Source: a virus. From it: DNA of 64,000 nt. The position numbers and the translations under genes are program-made. The stretch lies in IMG/VR virus record IMGVR_UViG_3300008266_000118; one strand, 5' to 3'. How positions within the stretch are numbered: the stretch's first letter is position 1; each line of letters opens with the position of its first letter. Under the pieces are notes generated by a model that did not search any database, was not told the origin of the DNA, and saw only the letters and a program-made list of their open reading frames with translations. Of this stretch, positions 3,136-56,532 are shown one piece after another.

Positions 3136-3957
3136 ATGAAATATTTTATTGACACAGAGTTTATCGAGGGAACTCAAACCAAAAAGATTTTAGGAATACC
3201 CTATGGTAAAACACCTCCCACTATTGACCTCATTAGCATAGGTATTGTTTCAGAAGATGGGCGTGAATACTACGCCATATCCAAGGACTTTAACTTGCGT
3301 GAGGCATGGGAGAGATACCAAATTGAACAAAAGTGGTATTCCATAGATTCTGAAAACCAATCAACAAGAAATGTGAAGGTGTATTGGATAAGAGAAAACG
3401 TGCTTAAACCAATATGGGTAGAACTATCACTTAAAAGTTGTGAAGGAAAGGGTGCAATTGTAAATGGAACATATATAAATGCAGAACAAAATAGGCTTTT
3501 CACAGAGCAGTGCATTAAAGAATCAAATCAATTTACCTATAACAACTTGAAAATGCTTATCAACAAGTACGGCAAGACCAATGCTGAAATAGCCACAGAG
3601 GTAAAAGAGTTTTGTAAACCAAATAGAGTTTATGAGGTAGTACAACCAATAACAATAAAGTATTCTGAAATACAAAATCCTGAGTTCTACGCTTACTATG
3701 CAGATTACGATTGGGTAGTGTTTTGTTGGTTGTTTGGTAAAATGAATGACCTCCCCGATGGTTTCCCAAAATACTGCATTGACCTGAAACAAGAGTTGGA
3801 TAGGAAAGCTGTTCTATACTTTACAGATAAAACATTAGAGCAAAATATTTCCTACATAAAGAATAGGAACGATTACCCCAAAGAAACCAACGCTCACAAC
3901 GCCTTGGCAGATGCACGTTGGAACCAAGAGCTATATAACTTCATAAAATCATTGTAA
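3136..3957 (+). CDS. DEDDh-family 3'-5' exonuclease (DnaQ/RNase T-like)
   Basis: Exo I motif FIDTEF near the N-terminus and Exo III motif HNALADA near the C-terminus. Confidence 0.6.
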   Translation: MKYFIDTEFIEGTQTKKILGIPYGKTPPTIDLISIGIVSEDGREYYAISKDFNLREAWERYQIEQKWYSIDSENQSTRNVKVYWIRENVLKPIWVELSLKSCEGKGAIVNGTYINAEQNRLFTEQCIKESNQFTYNNLKMLINKYGKTNAEIATEVKEFCKPNRVYEVVQPITIKYSEIQNPEFYAYYADYDWVVFCWLFGKMNDLPDGFPKYCIDLKQELDRKAVLYFTDKTLEQNISYIKNRNDYPKETNAHNALADARWNQELYNFIKSL

Positions 3958-4223
3958 TGAAAAAGGTTGCAACTCAAAAGGGTCATGACTATAAATTAGT
4001 CATATACAACGGCAGGGTGAAAGTTTATGTTGACGGATATGTAATGTTCTGTTTCAACCAAATAGACTTCGTAGGCTACTACTGCTACAAAGATGATACT
4101 GACCTATACGGCTTGGACATATACCTCAATAGACAAGGTGCAGGGCATCAAATCATGGAAATCTATTTCAAGACCAAAACTAATTGGCTTAACATCATCA
4201 AACTTTTAGACGAGAAACTTTAA
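3957..4223 (+). CDS. hypothetical protein
   Basis: 88-aa ORF, ATGA start/stop overlap with upstream gene. Confidence 0.4.
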   Translation: MKKVATQKGHDYKLVIYNGRVKVYVDGYVMFCFNQIDFVGYYCYKDDTDLYGLDIYLNRQGAGHQIMEIYFKTKTNWLNIIKLLDEKL

Positions 4224-4260
4224 CTACGGGAACAGGTATAACTGAACAAACAAAAAGATT

Positions 4261-12069: not shown

Positions 12070-15000
12070 CTATTTAAATAGAGACCTAAATATGTTTCTA
12101 AATTTAGTTACAGCACCTAGAATGACTATATACACAGAGCTTTCTACTTTTACAACCCCATACTGACCTATAGGCTGATTGCCTGCATATTTATTGAAAG
12201 CACCAAACCAATTGTCAAAACGCTTCTGAAAAGTCGTAACCGTATGCGGGAAAACCGTATCTCCATTCACGCTGATAGCCACGGTAGGGTCTGTAAAAGC
12301 ATACCCTTCACCGACACTTAAACCTGCACTGAGAAACCTCTTATCTGACATCCCATTTTTATTTACCACAAAAGATACCCTAAATATTGAAGCACCTGCT
12401 CCTAGATAATCTAGAACGCCTGTTCCGCCAAAAAGCTCATATATCTGATTAAAATCAACTATGCTAGGCTTTGGAGCTAAAGTCATGTTCTGATAAAAAA
12501 AGTATCTAGAAGGAACAAAAGAAGCAAAGGTTGAGAAGTTATTTGTCCTCTCATTGAATAATAGAGTCTTACTATCTGCACCCCAAGTCATGATAACAGA
12601 TGCGTGTTCTATATCAAAAACCTGAATCATATCGTACTCAGAATCGGCATTCATCGTCAAGAAGAACGAGCGCATACTATTCTCATCACTCAATACTTTT
12701 ATGCCATCTCCCCCATACCTACAGTACTTTTTAAACTCAGGAGAGAACCAATACAAGGTAGAATTTCCATTATTATTATTACCTACAAGTACGCAGGTTT
12801 GTAGACCTGTTCCGTAGGTAGATATGATATTCTCCCTTTGGTTATATACACCTCCCGTGCCAATCAATACTTCCCCTCCACCCTGTGTTCCTATAGCCAC
12901 ATCTGAAAGGTATGGCAAAACAGAAATAGCTCTAGGCTGTATAGATACCATGTAATTATTCACATCTCGTATAGCAGCAATATTTCCGTTCTTTGTATCC
13001 AAGTCCCTAAAGTCAAGCGCCAAAACCTTTCTATAAAAGTCCTGCAATGAATTGACGGGCTTCTGCTGAGAGTAGTATATGCGAGAAATAAAATTAGATT
13101 CAGAAGGTAAATTTGGATTGTATGCCGTTAACTTTAATGGATACTTAGCAGAAAAACCATCATCATAATTAAACTGCTCCTCTACTACATCTGAAATCGT
13201 TTCAAATGGAAATAAGTAGCTAACTATATTCTCATGACCAAACAAATTGTATGTGGTCTTATCAGAGGTATAGTCATTATACAACATTTGAGTATTTATC
13301 TTCTGTTGACCATAATAGGCTATAAAGGAAGTACGAATGCTTGTAGCGTCAAAGGTAGACCAATACCTAATCTTCAATATACACTTTTGCGTGTATGTAT
13401 CCCCACCAAAAACATCTAATGCAGGGCATACTCCTGTAGACAATTCATTTACATTTAAGTATGTACCTGTTGGCACTATATTAATCGAAAATAAATCATA
13501 CTGCTCTCCAACTACAGGTCTGATGTATTGAGCATAATACAAACCGTTATCAGATGCAATGGTATTAGGCACTAAGCACCCTGAAGTAGCTAAAGACATA
13601 TTCTCCATTGAACCTGAAGCAGAATTGTATACATTTATGTTTGGTCTGTATTTTAAAGAAGTACTTCTGATGGAAGGTATACCTGAATTAGGCTCTCCAA
13701 CTGCTTCTTCAAAGTTAGTGTAGCGACCATCAGTAACCGAAGCATCAATACCTTGAGCGGATTCTATTTCTCCATAATATTCTGCATAAGAACCTAATTG
13801 ACTACCATTTGTGGAGTATATACCACTTAAATTACTTAAAATCTTAGGGCAGTCGTAATATTTTAAAACATCCCCTGTACTAGGCTGCGTTTGATTAACC
13901 CTCGTATCATGAGAAAAGAACATTGAGAACAATCTTTCATCAGCTATTACGCTATATGTAGAACCATAAGCGCCATTACCTGTAGGAATAGATGCATAGT
14001 AACCTGCATTGTAAGCCCCTGCATTAAAATAATCTGCGGGCATTACAACACCTGTACCTAAAACGGTTGGATTACACTCTGCTCTCCATATTGAAACACC
14101 GTTGATTTGGTCTTTTATAGAAGAGACATCTAATCCTGATAAGATGGCGTAATAAGCGTAAGTCTCATAGGTATCTGCACCTGTACTAGACGTGAACAGA
14201 CTTATATCGTTTCCATCCCAATCGTTATTGAAGTAATCTATAAAGTAAGGAGAAGAGATGTAACCATTTTTGTAGTGAAAACGAGCAAATAAAGCGTATG
14301 TCTCATTCAGCATATACCCCACTTTAGTAGCGCAATTTACAGGCAATTGATACTCTCCAACCTTAGTTGAGTCAAAATCTTGAGCGCCAAGTGGTGTAAT
14401 CGTAAAACCTGAAGTTGAAGTTAAAAAAAGGTTTGTAGTTGAAGAAAATTTATAACTAGCACCCAAATAAACAATTTGACCTGCTGTTATGGAAAAAGTA
14501 ATATCAAAATTAGAATCTTTTTCAAACATATCTCCACTAGCAACTGCTACTCCATTTACAAATAACGACCATTTAAATGGCGCTAAAAGTTGTGCGACTC
14601 CACTATAACCAACACTACCTTTTATTCTGTAATTCCCTGTATTAGTGGCTGTCCAAAATCCACTTGAAGAACTATATTCACTAGCAGGGTTGTTTATAAT
14701 TTCAGAAAATTTTAATGGAGCGTTTATACCTGTCTGTTGAGCGTTAGATATTGGATTCCATGGAATCTCATCGCTACTAGGGTCAGCCGAAACCGTTACC
14801 CCTAATTCTGCTACCGAAACCAAAGCACCCACACCCTCCATGGCATACTTGCCTTGAGATATTGTAATGGCACTAGCAATAGCAGCTAAATCAGGGTCGT
14901 CTGCGCCAATCTCTAAATTTGCTAGATTTAACCTATTTTTCTTTATTTCTAGCGATTTTGCCTTTAAGATAACAGGGTCTGTTTGTGGCAAAAGTTCTGT

Positions 15001-50276: not shown

Positions 50277-50384
50277 ATGTCTTCATTTTATATTTTACTT
50301 GGCATTATAGGGGTAATTGCTTTATCCATGTTGATAGCAATACCAATAGCTTATTTTGTAGAGAAGAAAAAGAGAAGTTAACGC
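50277..50384 (+). CDS. 35-aa single-TM peptide, absent from ORF track
   Basis: MSSFYILLGIIGVIALSMLIAIPIAYFVEKKKRS; ends 4 nt before the tRNA-like element. Confidence 0.25.
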
Positions 50385-50388
50385 AAAC

Positions 50389-50474
50389 GGAGAGGTGGCG
50401 CAATTGGCAGACGAGCAGATAGGCGATAATATCAATAGGATGCGGGTATGCAGGTTCGAATCCTGCCCTTTCCG
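50389..50474 (+). tRNA. tRNA-like element, 86 nt, type-II length, anticodon arm not resolvable
   Basis: acceptor GGAGAGG/CCTTTCC (one G-U), D-loop AATTGG motif, canonical T-arm GCAGG-TTCGAAT-CCTGC; manual 5-7-5 search finds no anticodon stem-loop. Confidence 0.45.
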
Positions 50475-50518
50475 CAATTATGTTGTTTTTTGTAATATAA
50501 AATATCATATGTATATTT

Positions 50519-50797
50519 GTGTTTATGAAAACGGTTAGCAAAAAAGATATGCCTTGCAATAAAGCAAAGGCTACTCCAAGTCATCCAAAGAAAAGCCACA
50601 TCGTCAAAGCTTGTTCAGGCGGTAAAGAAAAGATAATCCGTTTTGGTGAGCAGGGCGCAAAAACTGCGGGCAAACCTAAAGCAGGGGAATCAGACAAGAT
50701 GAAGAAAAAAAGAGCTTCATTCAAAGCTAGACACGGAAAGAATATCGCTAAAGGTAATATGTCTGCTGCGTTTTGGAGTGACCGTGTGAAGTGGTAA
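50519..50797 (+). CDS. small basic protein, DUF5872-like (ATG at 50525)
   Basis: C-terminal KKRASFKARHGKN...AAFWSDRVKW matches the recalled DUF5872 signature RRKSFRARHNC...KWKARYW; leaderless TATATTTG promoter box at 50512-50519. Confidence 0.4.
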   Translation: MFMKTVSKKDMPCNKAKATPSHPKKSHIVKACSGGKEKIIRFGEQGAKTAGKPKAGESDKMKKKRASFKARHGKNIAKGNMSAAFWSDRVKW

Positions 50798-50818
50798 ACT
50801 GTTGAAAATCAATTAGTT

Positions 50819-51415
50819 ATGGGTAAGGTAAAAGATATATCAGGTGAGGTTTTTTCAAACTTACTTGTTTTAGAGTTTTTAGAAATAAAAAACACTAATT
50901 CATTGTGGTTGTGTAAGTGTCTCTTATGTAGTGAAACTACAAAGGTTAGTAAACCTAATCTACTAAGCGGAAACACTAAAGATTGCGGGTGTAAAAAAAG
51001 TGAAAAAATTTCAAACGCCATAAGGACTCATGGTCTTTCAAAAACCCCTACTTGGAACTCTTGGTTTAAAATGCATAGAAGGATAAAAGAAGGTGAAAAG
51101 CATAGTAAAATTTATGGGCAAATAACCGTTTGTGAAGAATGGGACAGTTTTGATACTTTTTTGAAAGATATGGGAGAAAGACCAAAAGGTACTTCTATAG
51201 ACAGGATAGATAATACAAAAGGGTATTATAAAGAAAATTGCAGATGGGCTACTCCAAGCGTTCAATGTAGAAACAGAGGAAACAATGTAATGATTACACA
51301 TAACGGGGAAACTTTGTGCGCTAAAGATTGGGGTAAAAAACTTGGAATGTGTAGAAGTAGGATATCTAAAAAGTTTAAAGAAGGTGTTTCAATAGAGCAA
51401 TTGTTAAACGAATAA
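50819..51415 (+). CDS. HNH homing endonuclease (HNH_3-like)
   Basis: SIDRIDNTKGYYKENCRWATPSVQCRN matches the HNH_3 D-x-I-D-N ... N-C-R motif; free-standing in the accessory region. Confidence 0.55.
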   Translation: MGKVKDISGEVFSNLLVLEFLEIKNTNSLWLCKCLLCSETTKVSKPNLLSGNTKDCGCKKSEKISNAIRTHGLSKTPTWNSWFKMHRRIKEGEKHSKIYGQITVCEEWDSFDTFLKDMGERPKGTSIDRIDNTKGYYKENCRWATPSVQCRNRGNNVMITHNGETLCAKDWGKKLGMCRSRISKKFKEGVSIEQLLNE

Positions 51416-51418
51416 AAC

Positions 51419-51598
51419 ATGAAAGCAAAGAGTACAGTTAACAAGGCAGGCAATTACACCAAGCCTACGATGCGCAAGGCTTTATTTGAAAAGATTAAAG
51501 CAGGTACTTCGGGTGGTAAAAGTGGTCAGTGGTCAGCAAGAAAAAGCCAAATGCTAGCTAGAGAGTACAAAGCTAAAGGCGGAGGATATCGTGACTAA
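51419..51598 (+). CDS. small basic protein (59 aa), absent from ORF track
   Basis: MKAKSTVNKAGNYTKPTMRKALFEKIKAGTSGGKSGQWSARKSQMLAREYKAKGGGYRD; K-rich, similar in flavour to its neighbours. Confidence 0.35.
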   Translation: MKAKSTVNKAGNYTKPTMRKALFEKIKAGTSGGKSGQWSARKSQMLAREYKAKGGGYRD

Positions 51599-51830
51599 AA
51601 GGAGGGAGCAGCAGAGTTTAGACAAGTGGACTAAACAGGAGTGGACTACACCTAGCGGTAAGCCATCAGGCAAGACAGGAGAAGTGTATGCTCCAAAGAA
51701 AAAGATTGAGAGCTTGAAACAGACACCTCAAGGTAGGAAGAAGCTAGCAGCTGCAAATGCTGCTAAGAGAAAGGCTACAAAAAAGGGGGAGCAGTACGCT
51801 AAACACGGGCTTCACAAAGGAATGAAATAG
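51591..51830 (+). CDS. small basic protein
   Basis: 79 aa, Lys-rich. Confidence 0.35.
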   Translation: MTKRREQQSLDKWTKQEWTTPSGKPSGKTGEVYAPKKKIESLKQTPQGRKKLAAANAAKRKATKKGEQYAKHGLHKGMK

Positions 51831-51924
51831 GTTTTTTTCCATAGTTATAAGTAAAAAAAAGGCTAGTACGGGTTAAACCATGCTAGCTTTTTTCTTTTTT
51901 TTAGGAGGTGGTAAAATGGAGCTT

Positions 51925-52044
51925 TATTTATTTCTTCTTGCTCATCTTAGCCATCATCTTCGCTTTCATTGCCTTCTTCATTGGAGCAGGCATCTCTTTG
52001 GCAACTTTCTTAGCAGCTACCATCTTCGATTTCATTGGTGTTTT
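51925..52044 (-). CDS. 39-aa Lys/Met-rich repeat peptide, absent from ORF track
   Basis: MKTPMKSKMVAAKKVAKEMPAPMKKAMKAKMMAKMSKKK; encoded over an 18-bp direct DNA repeat; shares the MKTP N-terminus with the upstream gene. Confidence 0.25.
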
Positions 52045-52072
52045 CATTGTGTTTTATTTTTTGGGTTTTGGT

Positions 52073-52444
52073 TTATTCTAATCTTTCTCTCACACTCTTT
52101 TTCAACTTCATTTTGTCATAAAAATCCTTGTCTCCTTTTCTTTTAGCGACCACCTTGTCAAAGGTAACACTAGCTTTCATAGCCTTATACCCTGACTCTA
52201 CTTTATGTTTGTCTCTTGGGTTTTTAGGAGAGGCGCTAGATGTAGCCAATTCTCTAGGGTCTTTCATCTTCGGGTACATTATCTCTACAGACCTATAGTC
52301 CTTTAAAGAGTTTTTCATGTCCGTTGAGTCTTTTTTAAACTCAATATCTTTACCCATCTCCATCCACTTACTTCTCATCTGAGCTTCAGTGCTTTTCTTT
52401 TCAGCAGGCTTTTTAGGCTTTGGTTGCTTTACAGGTGTTTTCAT
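52073..52444 (-). CDS. Lys-rich basic protein
   Basis: 123 aa, begins MKTPVKQPKPKKPAEKK. Confidence 0.4.
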   Translation of the reverse strand: MKTPVKQPKPKKPAEKKSTEAQMRSKWMEMGKDIEFKKDSTDMKNSLKDYRSVEIMYPKMKDPRELATSSASPKNPRDKHKVESGYKAMKASVTFDKVVAKRKGDKDFYDKMKLKKSVRERLE

Positions 52445-52459
52445 AAATACAAAGCTATA

Positions 52460-52648
52460 TTATTCTTTTTTATTTTCAAAATACAAGCCATCGTAGAAGT
52501 CTTTGATACTCTTGTATACTACAGCCATGTTGTCTGCACCAACCCCTTCGTTGTACATAACCCTGCAATTCTCTACATAACCCTCTTTTGTCTCTCCTGT
52601 GGTAAAGTGGATAGTAATCCCTTTGACCTCTAATTTACTTGTGTCCAT
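52460..52648 (-). CDS. hypothetical protein
   Basis: 62-aa ORF in the leftward operon. Confidence 0.35.
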   Translation of the reverse strand: MDTSKLEVKGITIHFTTGETKEGYVENCRVMYNEGVGADNMAVVYKSIKDFYDGLYFENKKE

Positions 52649-52681
52649 TTTTGATTTTTTGATTTATTTATTTATTTGATT

Positions 52682-53188
52682 CTACATACCTTTCTTCACC
52701 ACGGCTTCCGTCTTGGTAATATTCTCATCTATCTTATCGTAAAAGCCTTTCCTATTCCCACAGAAAATAAAGAAAGGGTTGACCCAATACTCAGACTGCC
52801 CCTTCTTCATCAAGAAGAAAGATTCAACCAATTCCTTTATCCCTTTAGAAGCAGTAAAGCGTGAGATGCCTAACTCCTTCTGCAATCTAGAGTGCTTCAG
52901 ATTTATATAGTCCGTATTCTCCCCTAAAGAGTAGATAATAAACAAAAGGACATCCCTACCATTCTGACCTAGCATACCAAAGATGATGCCCTTAACCCTA
53001 CTCGGTCTAAAGACACTTGTATGCCTAGGGCTGTCCATAAAAAAGACCTCAGACTTCGTCCCATGTCTCTTCGTAGCTATACCACTATCAACCCTATTAG
53101 GGTCTACAACATGATAATCCTTTACTATCTCAATACAGGTTAGCTGAAAAGTAGGATTCTTTACAAAAGGATTTATATCTTCTTTCAT
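52682..53188 (-). CDS. winged-HTH DNA-binding protein (candidate replication initiator/regulator)
   Basis: HTH-like LQKELGISRFTASKGIKELVE; gene sits beside the iteron-like repeat region. Confidence 0.4.
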   Translation of the reverse strand: MKEDINPFVKNPTFQLTCIEIVKDYHVVDPNRVDSGIATKRHGTKSEVFFMDSPRHTSVFRPSRVKGIIFGMLGQNGRDVLLFIIYSLGENTDYINLKHSRLQKELGISRFTASKGIKELVESFFLMKKGQSEYWVNPFFIFCGNRKGFYDKIDENITKTEAVVKKGM

Positions 53189-53475
53189 TTTTTATACCCC
53201 ATCTCTATGTTATAATACCAATCACTAAGACCTGTACTCTTCTCTACAATCCTAATACCCCGATGACCTATCTTAACACAACAATCTTTAGAAAAGACTA
53301 CATCATCACAGTAAGAAACAGTAAAGCAATCAATACTATCCAACCACTCTTTCCATACCTTTTTATCCCATGCATTAGGATTCTCTACATCATTATCCAA
53401 TGCATCCCTATCATAAAAAGGTGTAGCACGTTTTTTCATCTTACCTATGTCCATACAAAAACAAAGATACAGCAA
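53185..53475 (-). CDS. hypothetical protein
   Basis: 96-aa ORF; first gene of the leftward operon from the divergent region. Confidence 0.4.
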   Translation of the reverse strand: MLYLCFCMDIGKMKKRATPFYDRDALDNDVENPNAWDKKVWKEWLDSIDCFTVSYCDDVVFSKDCCVKIGHRGIRIVEKSTGLSDWYYNIEMGYKK

Positions 53476-53685
53476 ATGTTGATTCTAGCAAACATGGCTC
53501 TATGATTATCAGGCAGTTAAAAAGTGCTAAAACATGCAAATGTTGAAATTGATTTTTATAATCACCTCTATCACACATCTTTACATCACACTCTCGTATC
53601 TATTGTATATACTGCAATGTTACCTTTTACAATACTTGCCATACATCCGTGCTTAAAAAAAACGGTGTGTTCAAAAAAAATGTAT

Positions 53686-53835
53686 GTGGTGTAGGTGTAG
53701 GTGGTGTATGAGACGTAGGTAAGGTTTTTATGTATGGCATAGATGCTATATGAGATGGAGGTATAGATATTGCATGAGATGTGGGTATCATACAAGATGG
53801 AGGTGAAATTGTAGGCGCTATATGAGATGGAGATA
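53686..53835. repeat. iteron-like degenerate direct repeats (5x YATGAGAYGKRGG, plus GTAGGT x2 and a 16-bp exact pair 72 bp apart)
   Basis: copies at 53707, 53749, 53773, 53793, 53821; GCTATATGAGATGGAG at 53745 and 53817. Confidence 0.5.
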
Positions 53836-54024
53836 ACCCCACCTCACCTGCGGTCGCTGCCCCTCGAAAAAAAATACCCGTACCCCTATTTCGTGTTTTC
53901 CTATTTTGGGACAAAGTTTCATATTGAGGCTATCGTCCTATTATGAATCACAAGTTTCAAATTCGGTTTATAGTTTCATTTTGGTGTCGATGGTTCAAAA
54001 TGGGAGATTTAAGAGAATACCCAT

Positions 54025-54123
54025 CTACCTGCTACCTGTTTAGACTCATTCTAAATTAACATTTTATTTGCTTTTGTGGTTTATTTTGATATATGCATAT
54101 GCTTGTTTAGAATCATTATAAAT
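54025..54123. promoter_or_regulatory. candidate origin/regulatory region: CTACCTG x2, a 19-mer direct repeat GTTTAGAnTCATTnTAAAT x2, and an AT-rich tract
   Basis: 19-mers at 54038-54056 and 54105-54123; the flanking sequence is very AT-rich. Confidence 0.4.
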
Positions 54124-54350
54124 AAAATATTTTTTTCTGCTTTTGTATTTTTATTAGCCTGATTTTCAGGTAGTTAGATAAATAAATGTATAGTGTATAG
54201 TTTTGAGGACACTTTATTTGATTTGGTGACCCTATCTTGCAGGTGTATTTGAGGGGTTAGGGTTTGGGGTTGTTCTATTGATAGGTTTGAGTGTGGGCGA
54301 AATGCTTTATCCTAAGTGGCTTCAAACCTTTGTTATGAGTTCTTATATTT

Positions 54351-54806
54351 ATGAAAAAAACCAATACAAGCGCGAGCGAAAGCAGCGCGAAAACTACCAA
54401 GGTAGTTGCAAATGTGCCTGTTAAGAAAGCCAATGAGTTCAAGCAAAAGGGAGCGAAAGCAGAGGTAACAGAGAAAAAAGCAAAGGTGTTAAGTGACCCA
54501 AAGGTTCTTTATTTGGCAGAGGGCAAAAAGGGTAAAGACTTAATGAGCGCCAAAATTGAATCTAACAGATTGAACAAAGCGGAATTAAAAAGTTTGTCAT
54601 TTCAAATTAAGCAATTCCAAAAGCATGGCAGTGTTTTCTTGTCAACCTTTCGATTGGGCAGAATGGAGGATATAACGCCAAAAAATCTGATTCCGCACAT
54701 TGGAACAGGTGACGCAAAGAGACAGGCAAAAAATGGGGGTAATTGGTCTTATTACATGCTTGAAACGTGTGTGGCTAATTATTACAAAAGCAAAGCGAAA
54801 AAATAG
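54351..54806 (+). CDS. hypothetical basic protein
   Basis: 151-aa ORF, first gene rightward of the divergent region. Confidence 0.4.
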   Translation: MKKTNTSASESSAKTTKVVANVPVKKANEFKQKGAKAEVTEKKAKVLSDPKVLYLAEGKKGKDLMSAKIESNRLNKAELKSLSFQIKQFQKHGSVFLSTFRLGRMEDITPKNLIPHIGTGDAKRQAKNGGNWSYYMLETCVANYYKSKAKK

Positions 54807-54842
54807 GTTTTCGGTTCGAGGGGTTCGAGTCCCCTCTTTGCT
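54789..54842 (+). ncRNA. truncated tRNA-like minihelix (acceptor + hairpin + T-arm; no anticodon arm); may also act as a terminator
   Basis: acceptor AGCAAAG/CTTTGCT, hairpin CGAAAA-AATAGG-TTTTCG, T-arm AGGGG-TTCGAGT-CCCCT; overlaps the stop of the upstream CDS. Confidence 0.35.
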
Positions 54843-55443
54843 TCAAATTTACTAAAAACATATGCGAAATGCATATGAGTAAAATAGTGCGCTAATTGCG
54901 CGCGACATCGAAAATCCGTTCCTGAAAACGACATAGGGAACGTGTAATTAGTCGGGTTTCTTGGATATACTTGCATGGGGCGTGAACCCCTATCTGTAAA
55001 AAGAACAGATATTTTTTCAACTGCTATGTGGTTGTTTTTATCCGAATAAAAAAATGCTTATAAATGTAAAACGCTCAAACCGATAGCAAGGTAAAAGAGC
55101 GTATAGAAATAAAACCAAAAAAGCCACATTGTGAAATGCGCTCTAAGTTTTATTTTGATATCTGCCTGAAAAGTGAGGCAATCCACTATGTTACGAGAGC
55201 CGACGTGCTTTTGTAAACTCGCAAAAATCGCTACGAAAAGTAGAGAGTGGAATTTACACCCATACAAAATAGTTTTGTGTGTGGTGTATCTAAAATCGCA
55301 AAAATCAAAAATGTAAAAAAGAAACCTATTCAAGCCTATAATGGCTTTTTATGTGCGTATATAAACGCTAATTGCTCACTTTGACTGAAGTAATTCAGAA
55401 TACTATTGTTCCGAGATGTGAGATGTAAAAGACAGGACAAAAC

Positions 55444-55492
55444 AGGAGGAAATTGGTGTGGTGGGTTCGATTCCCACCTCCTCCTCAAACCA
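55444..55492 (+). ncRNA. tRNA-like minihelix (acceptor + D-loop remnant AATTGG + T-arm) followed by ACCA
   Basis: acceptor AGGAGGA/TCCTCCT 7 bp perfect; T-arm GGTGGG-TTCGATT-CCCACC; trailing CAAACCA. Confidence 0.35.
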
Positions 55493-55760
55493 AATAAATA
55501 AAAAACGTATGCCAATCAAGAAAAACAAAACAAACGAACAGATGTTCAGGGCTTTATTCAAAGAATTAGAAGGTTCTATCTTCCCTGCCCTACTAAGAGA
55601 GAGGATTGTAAATATCATGGAATTGACCGTGTATGACATCAAAAACAACCCAAAACAATGGGAGAGAAGTTTCATTCACCCAAGTATGTACGAAGAGTTA
55701 AACAAAATCGTGCAAAAGCATTTAGGTTTCAGCAAAGAAATAAACGACAAAACCAAATAA
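55458..55760 (+). CDS. hypothetical protein (likely start at Met 55508)
   Basis: the N-terminal part of the track ORF overlaps the tRNA-like minihelix. Confidence 0.35.
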   Translation: MVGSIPTSSSNQINKKRMPIKKNKTNEQMFRALFKELEGSIFPALLRERIVNIMELTVYDIKNNPKQWERSFIHPSMYEELNKIVQKHLGFSKEINDKTK

Positions 55761-55946
55761 ATAAAAACGTATGGAAGAGCTAGATTTAAATACCTACTTA
55801 TTAGTGGGTGAAGTACAAATCATTAAAACCAAGTAGAAAAAAACATGGGCTTAATCTTTTTTTGGTCAGTGCAGATTGTTATGTCTGTGCTGACCTTTCG
55901 TTTTGTAGAACGTAACAACAAAAAATCAAATAAATAAAATAAAACT

Positions 55947-56210
55947 ATGTCATTTAAAAACCTACCAAGCAAAGCAATACACGGAAATGGTATTCAATAC
56001 CTCGTGTTTTATCCAAACGGATACGGAGCATCAATCGTCAAACACCACTTTTCATACGGAGGGGATGCGGGTTATTGGGAGTTAGCCGTAGCCAAAGGGA
56101 ATGAAGAAGAGTGGGCAATATGCTACGATACACCCATAACAAGTGATGTTTTGGGGTGGCTATCAGATGAAAAGGTTGATGAAACCCTACTCGAAATAGA
56201 AAAGTTGTAA
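55947..56210 (+). CDS. hypothetical protein
   Basis: 87-aa ORF. Confidence 0.4.
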   Translation: MSFKNLPSKAIHGNGIQYLVFYPNGYGASIVKHHFSYGGDAGYWELAVAKGNEEEWAICYDTPITSDVLGWLSDEKVDETLLEIEKL

Positions 56211-56216
56211 AAATTA

Positions 56217-56289
56217 AGTCAGGTGGCGAAATTGGTTAAACGCTATGAGCGATGGCTCTATTGTGCAGGTTCGAATCCTGTCCTGACTG
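56217..56289 (+). tRNA. tRNA-like element, 73 nt, degenerate anticodon arm
   Basis: acceptor AGTCAGG/CCTGACT 7 bp perfect; GCG-AAATTGG-CGC D-arm; T-arm GCAGG-TTCGAAT-CCTGT; the middle region folds as GAGC-GATG-GCTC with no 7-nt anticodon loop. Confidence 0.4.
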
Positions 56290-56309
56290 CAAACCAAATA
56301 AAAACAAAC

Positions 56310-56504
56310 ATGAAAACATTAGAAACAATCGCCTATACGATAGGCAGTATCTTAATCTTATTTATTTTAGAAGGAGTGATGACGCTAGGACACGCCTTTG
56401 ACTTTGAAAACTACAGCCTATTCGGTTGGATAATTCAAACCATGCTAATTACCCTTGCAATAGTATTGGGTAATATAGAAAGACTAAGCGAAGAAAAAAG
56501 TTAA
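56310..56504 (+). CDS. small membrane protein (2 TM)
   Basis: MKTLETIAYTIGSILILFILEGV ... WIIQTMLITLAIVLG; the track ORF start at 56223 lies inside the tRNA-like element, so the start is trimmed to 56310. Confidence 0.4.
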   Translation: MKTLETIAYTIGSILILFILEGVMTLGHAFDFENYSLFGWIIQTMLITLAIVLGNIERLSEEKS

Positions 56505-56532
56505 AAAACCAAATAAACAAACAGACAAAACC

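Follow-up and report, generated by a model that had tools for sequence, protein, structure and literature searches.

Why should a phage keep, inside 6 kb of its genome, four sequences that resemble the top half of a tRNA and cannot read a codon? A sequence-only reading of the 64-kb stretch of viral DNA analysed here (the window) had described four such elements, and proposed that they could be decaying tRNA genes, decoys, substrates of tRNA-end enzymes or recombination remnants. That interpretation is partly supported by our results. We favor the explanation that the elements, here E1 to E4, descend from phage tRNA-Leu and are tRNA-like RNAs with a function other than decoding, which act as RNase P/RNase Z handles or as scaffolds in early transcripts, and we give it a probability of roughly one half; that they are transcribed, that RNase P and RNase Z cleave them and that the phage benefits is what we infer.

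Results

The T-loop pattern GGTTCGANTCC was observed four times in the window, as opposed to 0.02 times expected from shuffles, and the count was still exactly four when one mismatch was allowed. The pattern starts at 50453, 54822, 55464 and 56268, always on the + strand and inside 6 kb; all four T-stems are paired at 5/5 positions and an acceptor helix adjoins each, so that the reported places, the perfect T-stems and a clustering beyond chance were confirmed. The trailer N-CAA follows all four alike, and all adjoin stop or start codons. Their setting is between early genes of a Flavobacteria-type phage, and codon reading is impossible. An HNH endonuclease neighbour, previously considered meaningful, does not recur as a partner when related loci are compared. 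The four do not form a single close set of paralogs: E4 belongs to the dominant AGTCAGG class, E1 looks like the same tRNA-Leu-like design with a variant acceptor, E2 is tentatively a reduced form or acceptor variant of that design, and E3 is a distinct minimal class.

E1 (50389..50474, + strand, 86 nt) was recognized by the Rfam tRNA model and by stem pairing as tRNA-Leu-like, with no usable anticodon arm. Its acceptor pairs GGAGAGG (50389-95) with CCTTTCC (50467-73) at 7/7 positions, including G4.U69, and encloses a D-arm (50398-50416), a unique core (50417-50449) and a T-arm (50450-50466); the discriminator G (50474) and the trailer CAA (50475-77) follow. The Rfam score was 30.0 bits (gathering score 29) with the anticodon arm left unaligned, ARAGORN made no call, and the core matched nothing in the related loci, about 1.9 Mb in all. 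A short + strand ORF (about 50278-50382, unlisted and read from the sequence) ends 6 nt before E1, and the next start codon lies about 50 nt downstream of the E1 end. In L194, the closest relative, the syntenic place is taken by a tRNA-like element other than E1.

E4 (56217..56289, + strand, 73 nt), assigned to the AGTCAGG family by Rfam, ARAGORN and the shared scaffold, consists of the acceptor AGTCAGG/CCTGACT, a Leu-type D-arm, a unique 21-nt core (TATGAGCGATGGCTCTATTGT), the T-arm GCAGG-TTCGAAT-CCTGT, the discriminator G (56289) and the trailer CAA. The lengths of E1 and E4, their fully paired (7/7) acceptor stems and their Leu-like D-region (GGTGGCGnAATTGG) are thus as first described. Against Rfam E4 scored 41.8 bits, with a 6-nt loop and two non-standard anticodon-stem pairs, and ARAGORN labeled it 'tRNA-His (atg)'; this assignment is not credible, the ARAGORN loop CGATGGC being without U33 (read from the sequence). 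Genuine tRNAs of related phages reach 50-71 bits. The Rfam and ARAGORN check suggested earlier therefore calls both elements tRNAs in a nominal sense, with no credible anticodon, and they are weak tRNA matches, not ordinary tRNAs.

The 574-bp block at 55945-56518, which holds two small genes and E4, is absent in relatives L199 and L200, and its edges are AAA[C/T]CAAATAAA repeats. Such a repeat-bounded block is in line with a role at the DNA level, in which small accessory genes would be shuffled between phages at the conserved halves, these serving as recombination hotspots or cassette boundaries, and the tRNA-like fold would be a relic. Identical 20-30-bp halves also recur within and between phage genomes, and L194 and L041 carry one and the same core on different acceptors. 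However, the cassette boundaries in the window are a different repeat and not the tRNA-like halves, the pairing-preserving compensatory substitutions described below indicate selection on RNA and not on a DNA site, and strand bias, gene co-orientation and tRNA-type leaders and trailers point to RNA as well. We consider a DNA-level role very unlikely.

E2 (54789..54843, + strand, 55 nt) is a reduced tRNA-like element identified by an exact T-loop and a 7/7 acceptor partner. The acceptor, AGCAAAG (54789-95) with CTTTGCT (54836-42), is similar to the AGCAAGG/CCTTGCT class of L023, L042 and L052; inside it are a hairpin, CGAAAA-AATAGG-TTTTCG (54796-54813), and the T-arm AGGGG-TTCGAGT-CCCCT (54819-35), and the discriminator T (54843) and trailer CAA follow. 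Two minihelices of about 42-54 nt had been described; E2 is 55 nt long and, with its internal hairpin, not a bare minihelix. The overlap with a stop codon was verified, as the CDS at 54351-54806 runs with its final codons and its stop (54804-54806) into the E2 5' strand and hairpin, and a terminator scan also flags the T-arm with its TTTGCTT tail, as the sequence-only reading had suspected. E2 is the weakest of the four elements because no ortholog was found in the related loci compared. It could be read as an intrinsic terminator with a chance T-loop-like sequence, and a 7/7 acceptor partner within 150 nt would arise by chance in about 15% of cases (a rough estimate); however, the expectation for an exact T-loop of 11 nt is 0.02 in the window, which makes chance an unlikely source of the one in E2.

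E3 (55444..55486, + strand, 43 nt) is a minimal tRNA-like element supported by an ortholog and by covariation. Its structure is best described as the acceptor AGGAGGA/TCCTCCT (7 bp) and the T-stem GGTGGG/CCCACC (6 bp, enclosing TTCGATT), joined by the D-loop-like linker AATTGGTGT of 9 nt, with C as the discriminator. The ortholog in L199 shows three compensatory pairs in the acceptor and three in the T-stem. In the n=7 sequences that share this architecture 96.7% of cells are paired and both partners vary at 10/13 pairs; no shuffle attained the covariation score of the class (1.05 vs 0.23 in shuffles). Rfam recognized the T-arm alone, as a 15.5-bit tmRNA fragment. The '...CAAACCA' after E3, taken earlier as the end of the element, is not an encoded CCA end; it falls within AAACCAAATAAA, an intergenic motif repeated ahead of four start codons. 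Directly upstream of E3 lies the leader GAGATGTGAGATGTAAAAGACAGG (55412..55440, + strand), whose sequence is kept in L199, whereas the E3 helices changed. A promoter-like site (55381-55409) precedes it, and we infer that the stretch may act as promoter, as the region where a transcript starts or as a 5' leader.

The ORF-poor spacer between E2 and E3 (54847..55443, + strand) is highly structured, with an MFE of -158.5 kcal/mol (z = -6.5 to -6.9, compared with -3.2 to +1.4 in 11 other 599-nt windows), and contains several terminator-like hairpins. Rfam gave no match for it, its sequence is not conserved, and in L199 the corresponding gap shows no unusual degree of structure (z = -1.5). The spacer may be an RNA released or bounded by E2 and E3, an association that is uncertain.

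Both halves of the E4 scaffold are common to 246 family members. At least 246 distinct members occur in at least 120 IMG/VR stretches, and the 3' 23-mer of E4 was likewise found in at least 120. Among 185,579 bacterial and archaeal species the 23-mer had 20 matches, all on MAG contigs, and the E4-type 3' half was present in no isolate genome, a result that does not support the proposed origin as att or recombination remnants of a host tRNA. A D-loop and T-arm pattern search returned 55 viral loci, most of them with the AGTCAGG/CCTGACT acceptor, although the pattern did not require it. Scaffold positions are 90-100% conserved in the 246 members, a figure that counts only at positions left unconstrained by the exact patterns with which the family was gathered, conservation at the pattern positions being by construction. 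Near-invariant are the AGTCAGG acceptor, the tRNA-Leu D-arm, the T-arm and A73-C74 (A73 in 222/246). The cores are unrelated and hypervariable, so that the elements span 54-259 nt, the minimal member of 54 nt lying outside the window, and the phages that carry them range from 26 to 53% GC. The D-arm TGGCGGAATTGGTAGACGC, the U before the T-stem, A73 and C74 are as in genuine phage tRNA-Leu of the same loci, but the acceptor pair A1-U72 is unlike it. Close relatives differ by presence or absence of elements and by swapped acceptors, that is, by rapid turnover. In the literature searched we found no description of this family. It apparently represents a large, phage-specific and undescribed set of scaffolds of tRNA-Leu origin; their structured cores are hypervariable, and the conserved ends on either side look like handles for RNA processing.

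Two further results concern the missing arm and the helices. First, a canonical 5-7-5 anticodon arm was found in 4/246 cores, against 7.1 +/- 2.7 in shuffled cores, and the full-length ARAGORN calls (61/246 members) are distributed over 42 different anticodon types. E1-E4 have no functional anticodon arm, and here, given the Rfam alignment and the ARAGORN loop without U33, the description of intact acceptor and T-arms without one was borne out. Secondly, among 249 elements anchored on D-loop and T-arm only, 223 showed 7/7 acceptor pairing, with 53 distinct stems, and sliding the 3' acceptor strand destroyed the pairing. Orthologous cores also seem by eye to covary. The helices are under selection as RNA structure, through compensatory substitution.

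Decaying tRNA genes, the first of the earlier proposals, might be suspected from E1, which barely exceeds the Rfam threshold. However, the scaffold is near-invariant across hundreds of contigs, the helices change by compensatory substitution, and the anticodon arms are uniformly missing and not partly degraded. We regard decay, or a fortuitous terminator in the case of E2, as highly improbable.

The elements could also be decoys or sponges for defence or toxin enzymes that act on the tRNA acceptor end, T-arm or elbow, in which case abundant mimics would shield the real tRNAs, for example from 3'-end-modifying or -cleaving toxins. The family is multi-copy, phage-restricted and placed in early or accessory regions, conservation is confined to acceptor, T-arm and elbow, and rapid turnover between close relatives is typical of counter-defence loci. 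Yet no defence system or target was identified, the variable covarying cores are left unexplained, and a host-like acceptor would be expected, whereas the acceptor/T-arm is absent from isolate genomes. The version that invokes anticodon nucleases, suggested in the sequence-only reading, is excluded, as the cores are without anticodon loops. Decoys are in our view distinctly unlikely.

Discussion

According to the explanation that we favor, E1-E4 would be transcribed within + strand early and accessory transcripts, and each would fold into a tRNA 'top half', a coaxial acceptor/T-arm helix, on whose T-loop the GG-containing D-loop or linker of E1, E3 and E4 could dock. The host tRNA-end machinery would handle the elements like the phage's genuine tRNAs: RNase P would cut the 5' end, and RNase Z, or trimming and the CCA-adding enzyme, would act after the discriminator. 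As processing handles ('punctuation') and stable scaffolds, the elements would cut polycistronic transcripts at defined points, set the ends of neighbouring mRNAs and structured RNAs, and bear a variable hairpin core as cargo. Among the functions suggested earlier, substrates of tRNA-end enzymes (processing, CCA addition, possibly aminoacylation) fit best.

An acceptor/T-arm minihelix is all that RNase P, RNase Z and the CCA-adding enzyme require of a substrate. Precedents are the plant mitochondrial t-elements (PMC1920247) and RNAC and RNAD of T4, which are transcribed from the tRNA region (PMC3014915). Leader and trailer features are common to family members and genuine phage tRNAs: T stands at -1 in 199/246 members and in 202/295 genuine tRNAs of the same loci, C74 is found in 242/246 members, and the predominant trailers of genuine tRNA genes in related phages, N-CAAA, N-CAAT and N-CTAA, are similar to the N-CAA of E1-E4. 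Moreover, 234/245 members lie between genes, and about 90% point in the same direction as the genes on both sides.

Several observations speak against the handle explanation. An RNase P cut at the E2 5' end would strip the upstream CDS of its last codons and stop, E2 is without an ortholog and may be taken for a terminator, and the structured E2-E3 spacer is not conserved in L199. Because ORFs are absent between the elements of many family arrays, 'mRNA punctuation' is not the whole story. Processing alone requires only the shape, yet conservation extends to the individual nucleotides of the AGTCAGG acceptor and the Leu-type D-arm and to U48 and A73, which points to an additional sequence-specific partner.

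This conservation would be better explained if the elements were leucine-accepting tRNA mimics, CCA-matured, leucine-charged and acting outside decoding, which may donate the aminoacyl group to a transferase or, as competitors, titrate LeuRS, EF-Tu or further factors that bind tRNA. In such mimics the scaffold would retain the features required by LeuRS and do without the anticodon; its D-arm, A73 and C74 match phage tRNA-Leu, and the determinants of bacterial LeuRS are A73 and the tertiary core U8-A14, G18-U55, G19-C56 and, in E. coli, A15-U48. A tRNA-Leu without the whole anticodon stem-loop loses only about 2.5-fold in LeuRS affinity (PMC2377443). However, both E1 and E4 carry G73, and A73G lowers leucylation 143-fold; E1 also has G4.U69, and a G4-U69 mutant is about 40-fold worse (PMC2377443). 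The D-arm is missing from E2 and E3, the A1-U72 pair departs from genuine tRNA-Leu, and among the 30 proteins scanned in the window there is no aminoacyl-transferase or similar gene. Leucine-accepting mimics are thus conceivable, if rather doubtful.

For the favored explanation, that of handles and scaffolds, other phages offer a parallel. A conserved structured RNA of about 125 nt, with compensatory pairs at 10/24 and no Rfam match, begins where one tRNA-like element has its 3' end and stops at the 5' end of the following tRNA or tRNA-like element, or a few nt short of it, in L053, L100, L076, L003, L147 and L178, and in L018 the same RNA is embedded within a scaffold.

The window elements

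As judged from comparative sequence evidence, the four plus-strand tRNA-like elements of the window, here E1 to E4, are putatively functional, anticodon-less RNAs that derive from tRNA-Leu and belong to a widespread phage family. The T-loop sequence GGTTCGANTCC occurs exactly four times in the window, always on the plus strand (50453, 54822, 55464 and 56268), where shuffled sequences predict 0.02 copies; allowing one mismatch added no further copies in the window. In all four elements the T-stem is perfectly paired, the adjoining helix pairs with an upstream heptamer, and this 7-bp acceptor stem is stacked directly on a T-stem (5 bp, or 6 bp in E3) carrying a GTTCRANYC T-loop. The sequence-only reading, which had described acceptor and T-arms as intact and anticodon arms as missing or degenerate, was thus correct in substance and its observation is confirmed, whereas its interpretation holds only in part. 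Some details also required revision. E2 extends over 54789-54843 (55 nt), contains an internal hairpin and overlaps the stop codon at 54804-54806, E3 extends over 55444-55486 (43 nt), and the “CAAACCA” that had been taken for a terminus is part of a repeated intergenic motif and not a CCA end.

The anticodon arm is where the elements depart from tRNAs. A canonical arm (5-bp stem, 7-nt loop, U33 and a purine at position 37) was found in none of E1-E4, and E2 and E3 are without any such arm. The two long elements had been singled out for a check with tRNA-finding tools, with a mixed outcome: the Rfam tRNA model (RF00005, gathering threshold 29 bits) scores both E4 (56217-56289, 41.8 bits) and E1 (50389-50474, 30.0 bits), ARAGORN calls E4 alone of the four, and neither tool gives either element a canonical anticodon arm. 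The ARAGORN call is “tRNA-His (atg)”, with an implied loop CGATGGC that has no U33, and in the Rfam alignment of E4 the anticodon loop has 6 nt and two pairs of its stem are non-standard. The corresponding region of E1 is left unaligned by Rfam and uncalled by ARAGORN. For E2 and E3 Rfam reported nothing even at E <= 10, a T-arm fragment apart.

E1 and E4 share a Leu-type D-arm (TGGCGnAAT(T)GG, one stem mismatch in each), a U before the T-stem, the T-arm [A/G]CAGG-TTCGAAT-CCTG[T/C], and a core of variable length between the D- and T-arms that is not tRNA-like. E2 and E3 have no Leu-type D-arm; in place of the G18G19 equivalents, E3 has only a 9-nt GG-containing linker, and E2 a hairpin without GG. 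Within the window the acceptor [A/G]GTCAGG / CCTGAC[T/C] is found in E4 only, the other three having variant acceptors, GGAGAGG/CCTTTCC (E1), AGCAAAG/CTTTGCT (E2) and AGGAGGA/TCCTCCT (E3). All four elements have C74 and A75-A76, in an N-CAA trailer. The loop GCGAT, present in both E1 and E4, is a chance coincidence (9 such cases observed among cores, 9.6 expected).

A phage-wide family

A pattern search of IMG/VR with the D-loop and T-arm common to E1 and E4 returned 55 loci. Most of these carry the E4 acceptor, AGTCAGG...CCTGACT, though the pattern left the acceptor free, and the segment from D-arm to T-arm is completely different in sequence and length between loci. The 3' 23-mer of this AGTCAGG family occurs in at least 120 IMG/VR viral stretches, with up to seven copies per stretch among the matches listed. 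Across 185,579 bacterial and archaeal species (one genome per species) it was found in no isolate genome, and its 20 matches all lie on MAG contigs, mostly in Bacteroidota bins. From its presence in viral stretches and absence from isolates it follows that the family is a phage element and not a host tRNA. The same distribution, established for the 3' part of E4 and its family, speaks against the proposal that the elements are att or integration remnants of a host tRNA, as does the 5' acceptor strand, which is present and covaries. A role in recombination at the DNA level is possible. Exact copies of the family's 3' half were absent from GenBank phages.

We gathered 246 distinct members from all retrieved loci. 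They are 54-259 nt long (median about 98), with A73 in 222/246, C74 in 242/246 and T at position -1 in 199/246; C75 is present in 14/246. The 5' half, which the 23-mer pattern left free, is 80-100% conserved across AGTCAGG-TG-GCG-AA. Against these norms E4 is a standard member that carries G73, a discriminator found in 19 of the 246. E1 also has G at this position, E2 has T and E3 has C, and where the family has T at -1 the window elements have C (E1, E3) or A (E2, E4).

It had been suggested that the elements are decoys for host anticodon nucleases. Our results do not favor this, since a canonical arm (5-bp stem and 7-nt YU-NNN-R loop) can be drawn in only 4 of 246 cores, as compared to 7.1 +/- 2.7 in shuffled cores, and only two of those four hold the tRNA-like offset. 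Decoys for toxins that act on the acceptor end are possible. Full-length ARAGORN calls were obtained for 61/246 members and are spread over 42 anticodon types, the remaining 185 being uncalled, and members score 31-48 bits with Rfam as compared to 50-71 bits for genuine tRNAs in the same loci.

A second suggestion, that these are decaying tRNA pseudogenes, also finds no support. When elements were anchored on D-loop and T-arm only, the acceptor was fully paired in 223 of 249, a set that also holds genuine tRNAs with a Leu-like D-loop, and the acceptors covary across 53 distinct stems; sliding the 3' strand by 1-3 nt makes the pairing collapse. The cores are essentially unique (185 singletons among 243), and core hairpins of orthologs show apparent compensatory substitution, as judged by eye. 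The scaffold D-arm, U48, A73 and C74 are the same as in the genuine phage tRNA-Leu genes of those loci, which argues that the family is a tRNA-Leu derivative in which the anticodon arm and the long variable arm have been replaced.

Nearly all members (234/245) lie between genes, with about 90% in the same orientation as both neighbors; arrays of 3-8 are frequent, some without any ORF between the copies. Genuine tRNAs in the same loci have T at -1 in 202/295 and trailers N-CAAA, N-CTAA and N-CAAT, and this shared -1 T and these trailers place the elements in the setting in which tRNAs of these phages are natively processed. All-against-all clustering of the proteins of the first 55 loci, in flanks of only ~5-7 kb, gave no ORF family present in more than 10 loci that could be a co-occurring partner, and the commonest families near members are small accessory proteins and primase.

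Several features of individual loci were also recorded. The AGTCAGG member ending at 3807 (+) in locus L002 has a second, internal T-arm-like hairpin, TTGGTTCGATCCCAA, in its core. A short hairpin, GGCTCGGAAAGACGAGC, lies a few to ~12 nt 5' of tRNA-like elements in L184, L019, L017, L174, L151, L149 and L118 (and in L018 and L021), with near-exact matches of 23-27 nt across contigs. Phage tmRNA genes predicted by ARAGORN adjoin tRNA-like elements in four viral contigs (L008 3382-3775, L010 3809-4172, L045 7373-7736 and L048 3887-4250), and their predicted tags are ADLYPSQKASAKVIKLTPVAEQELELAA and ANDNVELQEFALAA.

Individual elements, cores and bracketed RNAs

E1 combines the design of E4 with a different acceptor, which includes a G4.U69 pair. 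In the closest relative of the window (88% primase identity), the position syntenic to E1 is occupied by a different tRNA-like element. The core of that element shares ~80% identity with the core of an AGTCAGG member from another locus, yet the acceptors of the two differ. Cores and acceptors thus behave as separable modules.

An ortholog of E3 occurs in another relative, L199, in which the 409-aa protein is 69% identical. Leader, 9-nt linker and T-loop are conserved between the two, and three acceptor pairs and three T-stem pairs have changed on both sides. Five more metagenomic sequences have the same architecture built from unrelated helices, and a metagenome pattern that included the E3 leader gave no matches. 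Over the E3 architecture 96.7% of cells pair, changes are compensatory at 10 of 13 pairs, and the covariation score is 1.05 as compared to 0.23. Covariation thus identifies E3 as a self-contained 43-nt helix-linker-helix.

E2 is the weakest of the four. In its favor are the exact T-loop, an acceptor that pairs at 7/7 positions and is similar to the AGCAAGG class, and an internal hairpin; against it stand the lack of an ortholog and a T-arm open to a second reading as a terminator. A terminator scan flagged the hairpin GAGGGG-TTCGAGT-CCCCTC with its tail TTTGCTTCAA; this tail, however, has an interruption, and the hairpin loop is the exact T-loop. Orthologs of E2, and of the cores of E1 and E4, were absent from the compared loci.

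We also considered whether E2 and E3 could form opposite ends of a tmRNA or of one giant scaffold. As in the tRNA-like domain of tmRNA, acceptor and T-arm are present, the D-region is reduced and there is no anticodon, whereas the window elements have neither a tag reading frame nor pseudoknots. ARAGORN found no tmRNA in the window, the 17-nt match of the E3 T-arm to the Rfam tmRNA model (positions 347-363) reaches 15.5 bits against a threshold of 47, and with E3 self-contained by covariation and without ARAGORN or Rfam support both ideas were rejected. The ORF-poor spacer between the two elements (54847-55445, +, 599 nt) is the most structured segment tested (z = -6.5 to -6.9, as compared to -3.2 to +1.4 in 11 other windows) and holds a series of hairpins at ~54993-55040 and 55332-55352, of which several resemble terminators. 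Rfam gave no match to the spacer, and the equivalent gap in L199 is neither conserved in sequence nor unusually structured.

Among cores and spacers, the generic tRNA model was the sole Rfam match to a known RNA family. That the cores serve as antisense guides to neighboring genes was rejected, as the longest complementary match averaged 7.3 nt in the own locus and 7.8 nt in control loci; for the window cores it is only 11 nt.

In other loci the tRNA-like elements bracket a conserved structured RNA of ~125 nt, found at 14096-14232 in the closest relative (L194) and also in L053, L100, L076, L003, L147, L131, L178 and L018. It has the invariant blocks TGACACGCACGGCA and TACCTCAC.GTGCGTAGGTAA, double changes preserve 10 of its 24 predicted pairs, and no Rfam family matched it at E <= 1; it appears to be a phage ncRNA as yet undescribed. 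Its start coincides with the 3' end of one tRNA-like element; on the other side it runs up to the 5' end of the next tRNA-like element or of a genuine tRNA-Leu, or stops a few nt short of it. One locus has it embedded inside a scaffold. Such bracketing is as expected if other RNAs are released or held through RNase P and RNase Z recruited by the elements.

Proposed function and known systems

The most likely function of the elements would be that of processing handles and scaffolds, to which RNase P and RNase Z would be drawn so that other RNAs are released or held. Shape alone should suffice for processing, and the conservation of acceptor and Leu-type core nucleotides therefore suggests an additional, sequence-specific partner. 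Leucyl-tRNA synthetase (LeuRS) is the obvious candidate: the enzyme ignores the anticodon and needs A73 together with the tertiary core, and tRNA-Leu bodies without an anticodon arm stay LeuRS substrates in vitro (PMC2377443). The dominant family has the whole set, namely A73, U8-A14, G18-U55, G19-C56, A15-U48 and a regular acceptor helix. The window elements, however, deviate from it, as E1 and E4 carry G73, which costs 143-fold in that system, and E1 has the G4.U69 pair that was strongly deleterious there (PMC2377443). The minimalist tRNA-Leu molecules of that study resemble the dominant family in that the anticodon arm is absent and A73 and the D/T-loop tertiary core are kept, and differ from it in being laboratory constructs rather than natural genes.

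From these observations we tentatively propose, with odds of about one in four, that Bacteroidota-type phages carry a natural modular “tRNA chassis”, a tRNA-Leu scaffold whose anticodon and variable arms have been swapped for hundreds of structured RNA cargos, giving stable, precisely processed and possibly leucine-charged small RNAs that could serve during infection as aptamers, decoys or regulators. E1-E4 would then represent four units of this kind, two of them miniaturized. On this proposal the scaffold may retain all anticodon-independent features that tRNA maturation requires and, in the majority of members, those that LeuRS recognizes.

In engineered tRNA scaffolds, the gammaherpesvirus tRNA-miRNA encoded RNAs and mascRNA, all of them synthetic or eukaryotic, a tRNA-like module recruits RNase P/RNase Z and stabilizes or releases an attached or embedded RNA. 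A bacterial-virus counterpart with variable embedded cores was absent from the literature searched. The closest analogues in logic are the engineered scaffolds and the t-elements of plant mitochondria. The t-elements are described as degenerate tRNA-like structures, mainly acceptor and T-arm, that lie inside polycistronic transcripts and help to form the 5' and 3' ends of mRNAs, and RNase P and RNase Z are mentioned repeatedly (PMC1920247). The logic we propose is identical, and the placement is alike, acceptor/T-arm minihelices being found in sense orientation between genes both in the window and in the family. The phage family differs in its multi-copy arrays, some of them ORF-free, its near-invariant tRNA-Leu-type scaffold and its hypervariable structured cores.

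Among phages, the closest precedents are RNAC and RNAD of T4 and, in Tenacibaculum phage pT24, the “tRNA-Undet” genes. RNAC and RNAD are themselves tRNA-like. They are small RNAs from the T4 tRNA region, to which no biological role has been assigned (PMC3014915), and have been confirmed by Northern blot (PMC9697503); these are two RNAs, compared to hundreds on a common scaffold in Bacteroidota-type phages, and there is no apparent sequence relationship. In pT24 (L193, LC168164), a cultured jumbo phage of a Flavobacteriia host, tRNAscan-SE makes four calls at 3278-4235, tRNA-Sup, tRNA-Undet, tRNA-Pro and tRNA-Undet, which were reported only as “4 tRNAs” (PMC5502841). In both Undet copies the acceptor, D- and T-arms are normal and the anticodon arm has given way to a long stem capped by a 3-nt loop, but their acceptor sequences and D-arm type are different, so that they do not represent the AGTCAGG/Leu-type scaffold.

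A description of the AGTCAGG family was not found in the literature searched, the coverage of which was incomplete. If the chassis proposal is true, the elements constitute a previously unrecognized class of non-coding RNA genes of phages, at present overlooked or annotated wrongly as unusual tRNAs. The family is present in at least 120 IMG/VR stretches and absent from cultured bacterial genomes. Because tRNA finders assign members arbitrary isotypes (42 anticodon types) or miss them (185/246), tRNA counts for Bacteroidota phages, and the codon-usage and suppressor-tRNA inferences drawn from them, are contaminated. The design, in which the tRNA top half is invariant, the structured core is free in form and conserved RNAs are sometimes bracketed, would be the natural counterpart of the engineered scaffold. 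It suggests that the host's RNase P, RNase Z and CCA addition, and possibly its LeuRS, are put to use by phages for making small RNAs. A route to phage-encoded regulatory or counter-defense RNAs could thereby open.

Genome setting

The window (GC 36.7%) is a tailed-phage genome. The minus strand carries, at ~7-45 kb, the structural module, which encodes among others a portal, a large terminase and virion proteins. Early and replication genes are on the plus strand; E1-E4 are set among small early/accessory genes of the plus strand. Homologues nearest to the window primase/helicase are from phages of Flavobacterium, Cellulophaga, Maribacter and Tenacibaculum. The 7-kb block has no relative among GenBank phages, and searches of IMG/VR with three proteins found no close relatives. 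None of the 30 window proteins scanned is a tRNA-related enzyme. The sole candidate for an RNA-end-related enzyme among them is a 273-aa protein (3136-3957, +) with a 3'-5' exoribonuclease Rv2179c-like domain (Pfam PF16473, 36.5 bits).

The motif AAACCAAATAAA lies just 5' of consecutive start codons on the plus strand, at 55487, 55750, 56291 and 56506, and with one mismatch at 55923; at up to one mismatch there are 11 matches, 2.07 being expected. Copies flank a 574-bp block (55945-56518) that contains an 87-aa gene, E4 and a 64-aa gene and is missing from the relatives L199 and L200, which suggests cassette gain or loss at these repeats.

An intergenic region of ~870 nt separates divergent minus- and plus-strand gene blocks. 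It holds iteron-like direct repeats at 53679-53836 (four copies of ATATGAGATGGAGGT, spaced 42, 42 and 30 nt, plus related 35-nt units), which could be a replication origin or regulatory region, and its part 53867-54176 is conserved in L199. Where the plus-strand block meets the convergent minus-strand block, a strong bidirectional terminator-like hairpin, AAAAAGGCTAGTACGGGTTAAACCATGCTAGCTTTTTT, is found at 51856-51900; weak Rfam matches to leader and ctRNA families at this hairpin were dismissed as spurious. Small proteins are encoded beside E1 and the HNH endonuclease at 50519-50797, the product of which matches phrog_7595, and at 51419-51830. These genes show 66-76% similarity at the DNA level to hypothetical genes of Roseobacter, Synechococcus, Methylophilales and Puniceispirillum phages, which suggests that they are widely exchanged accessory genes.
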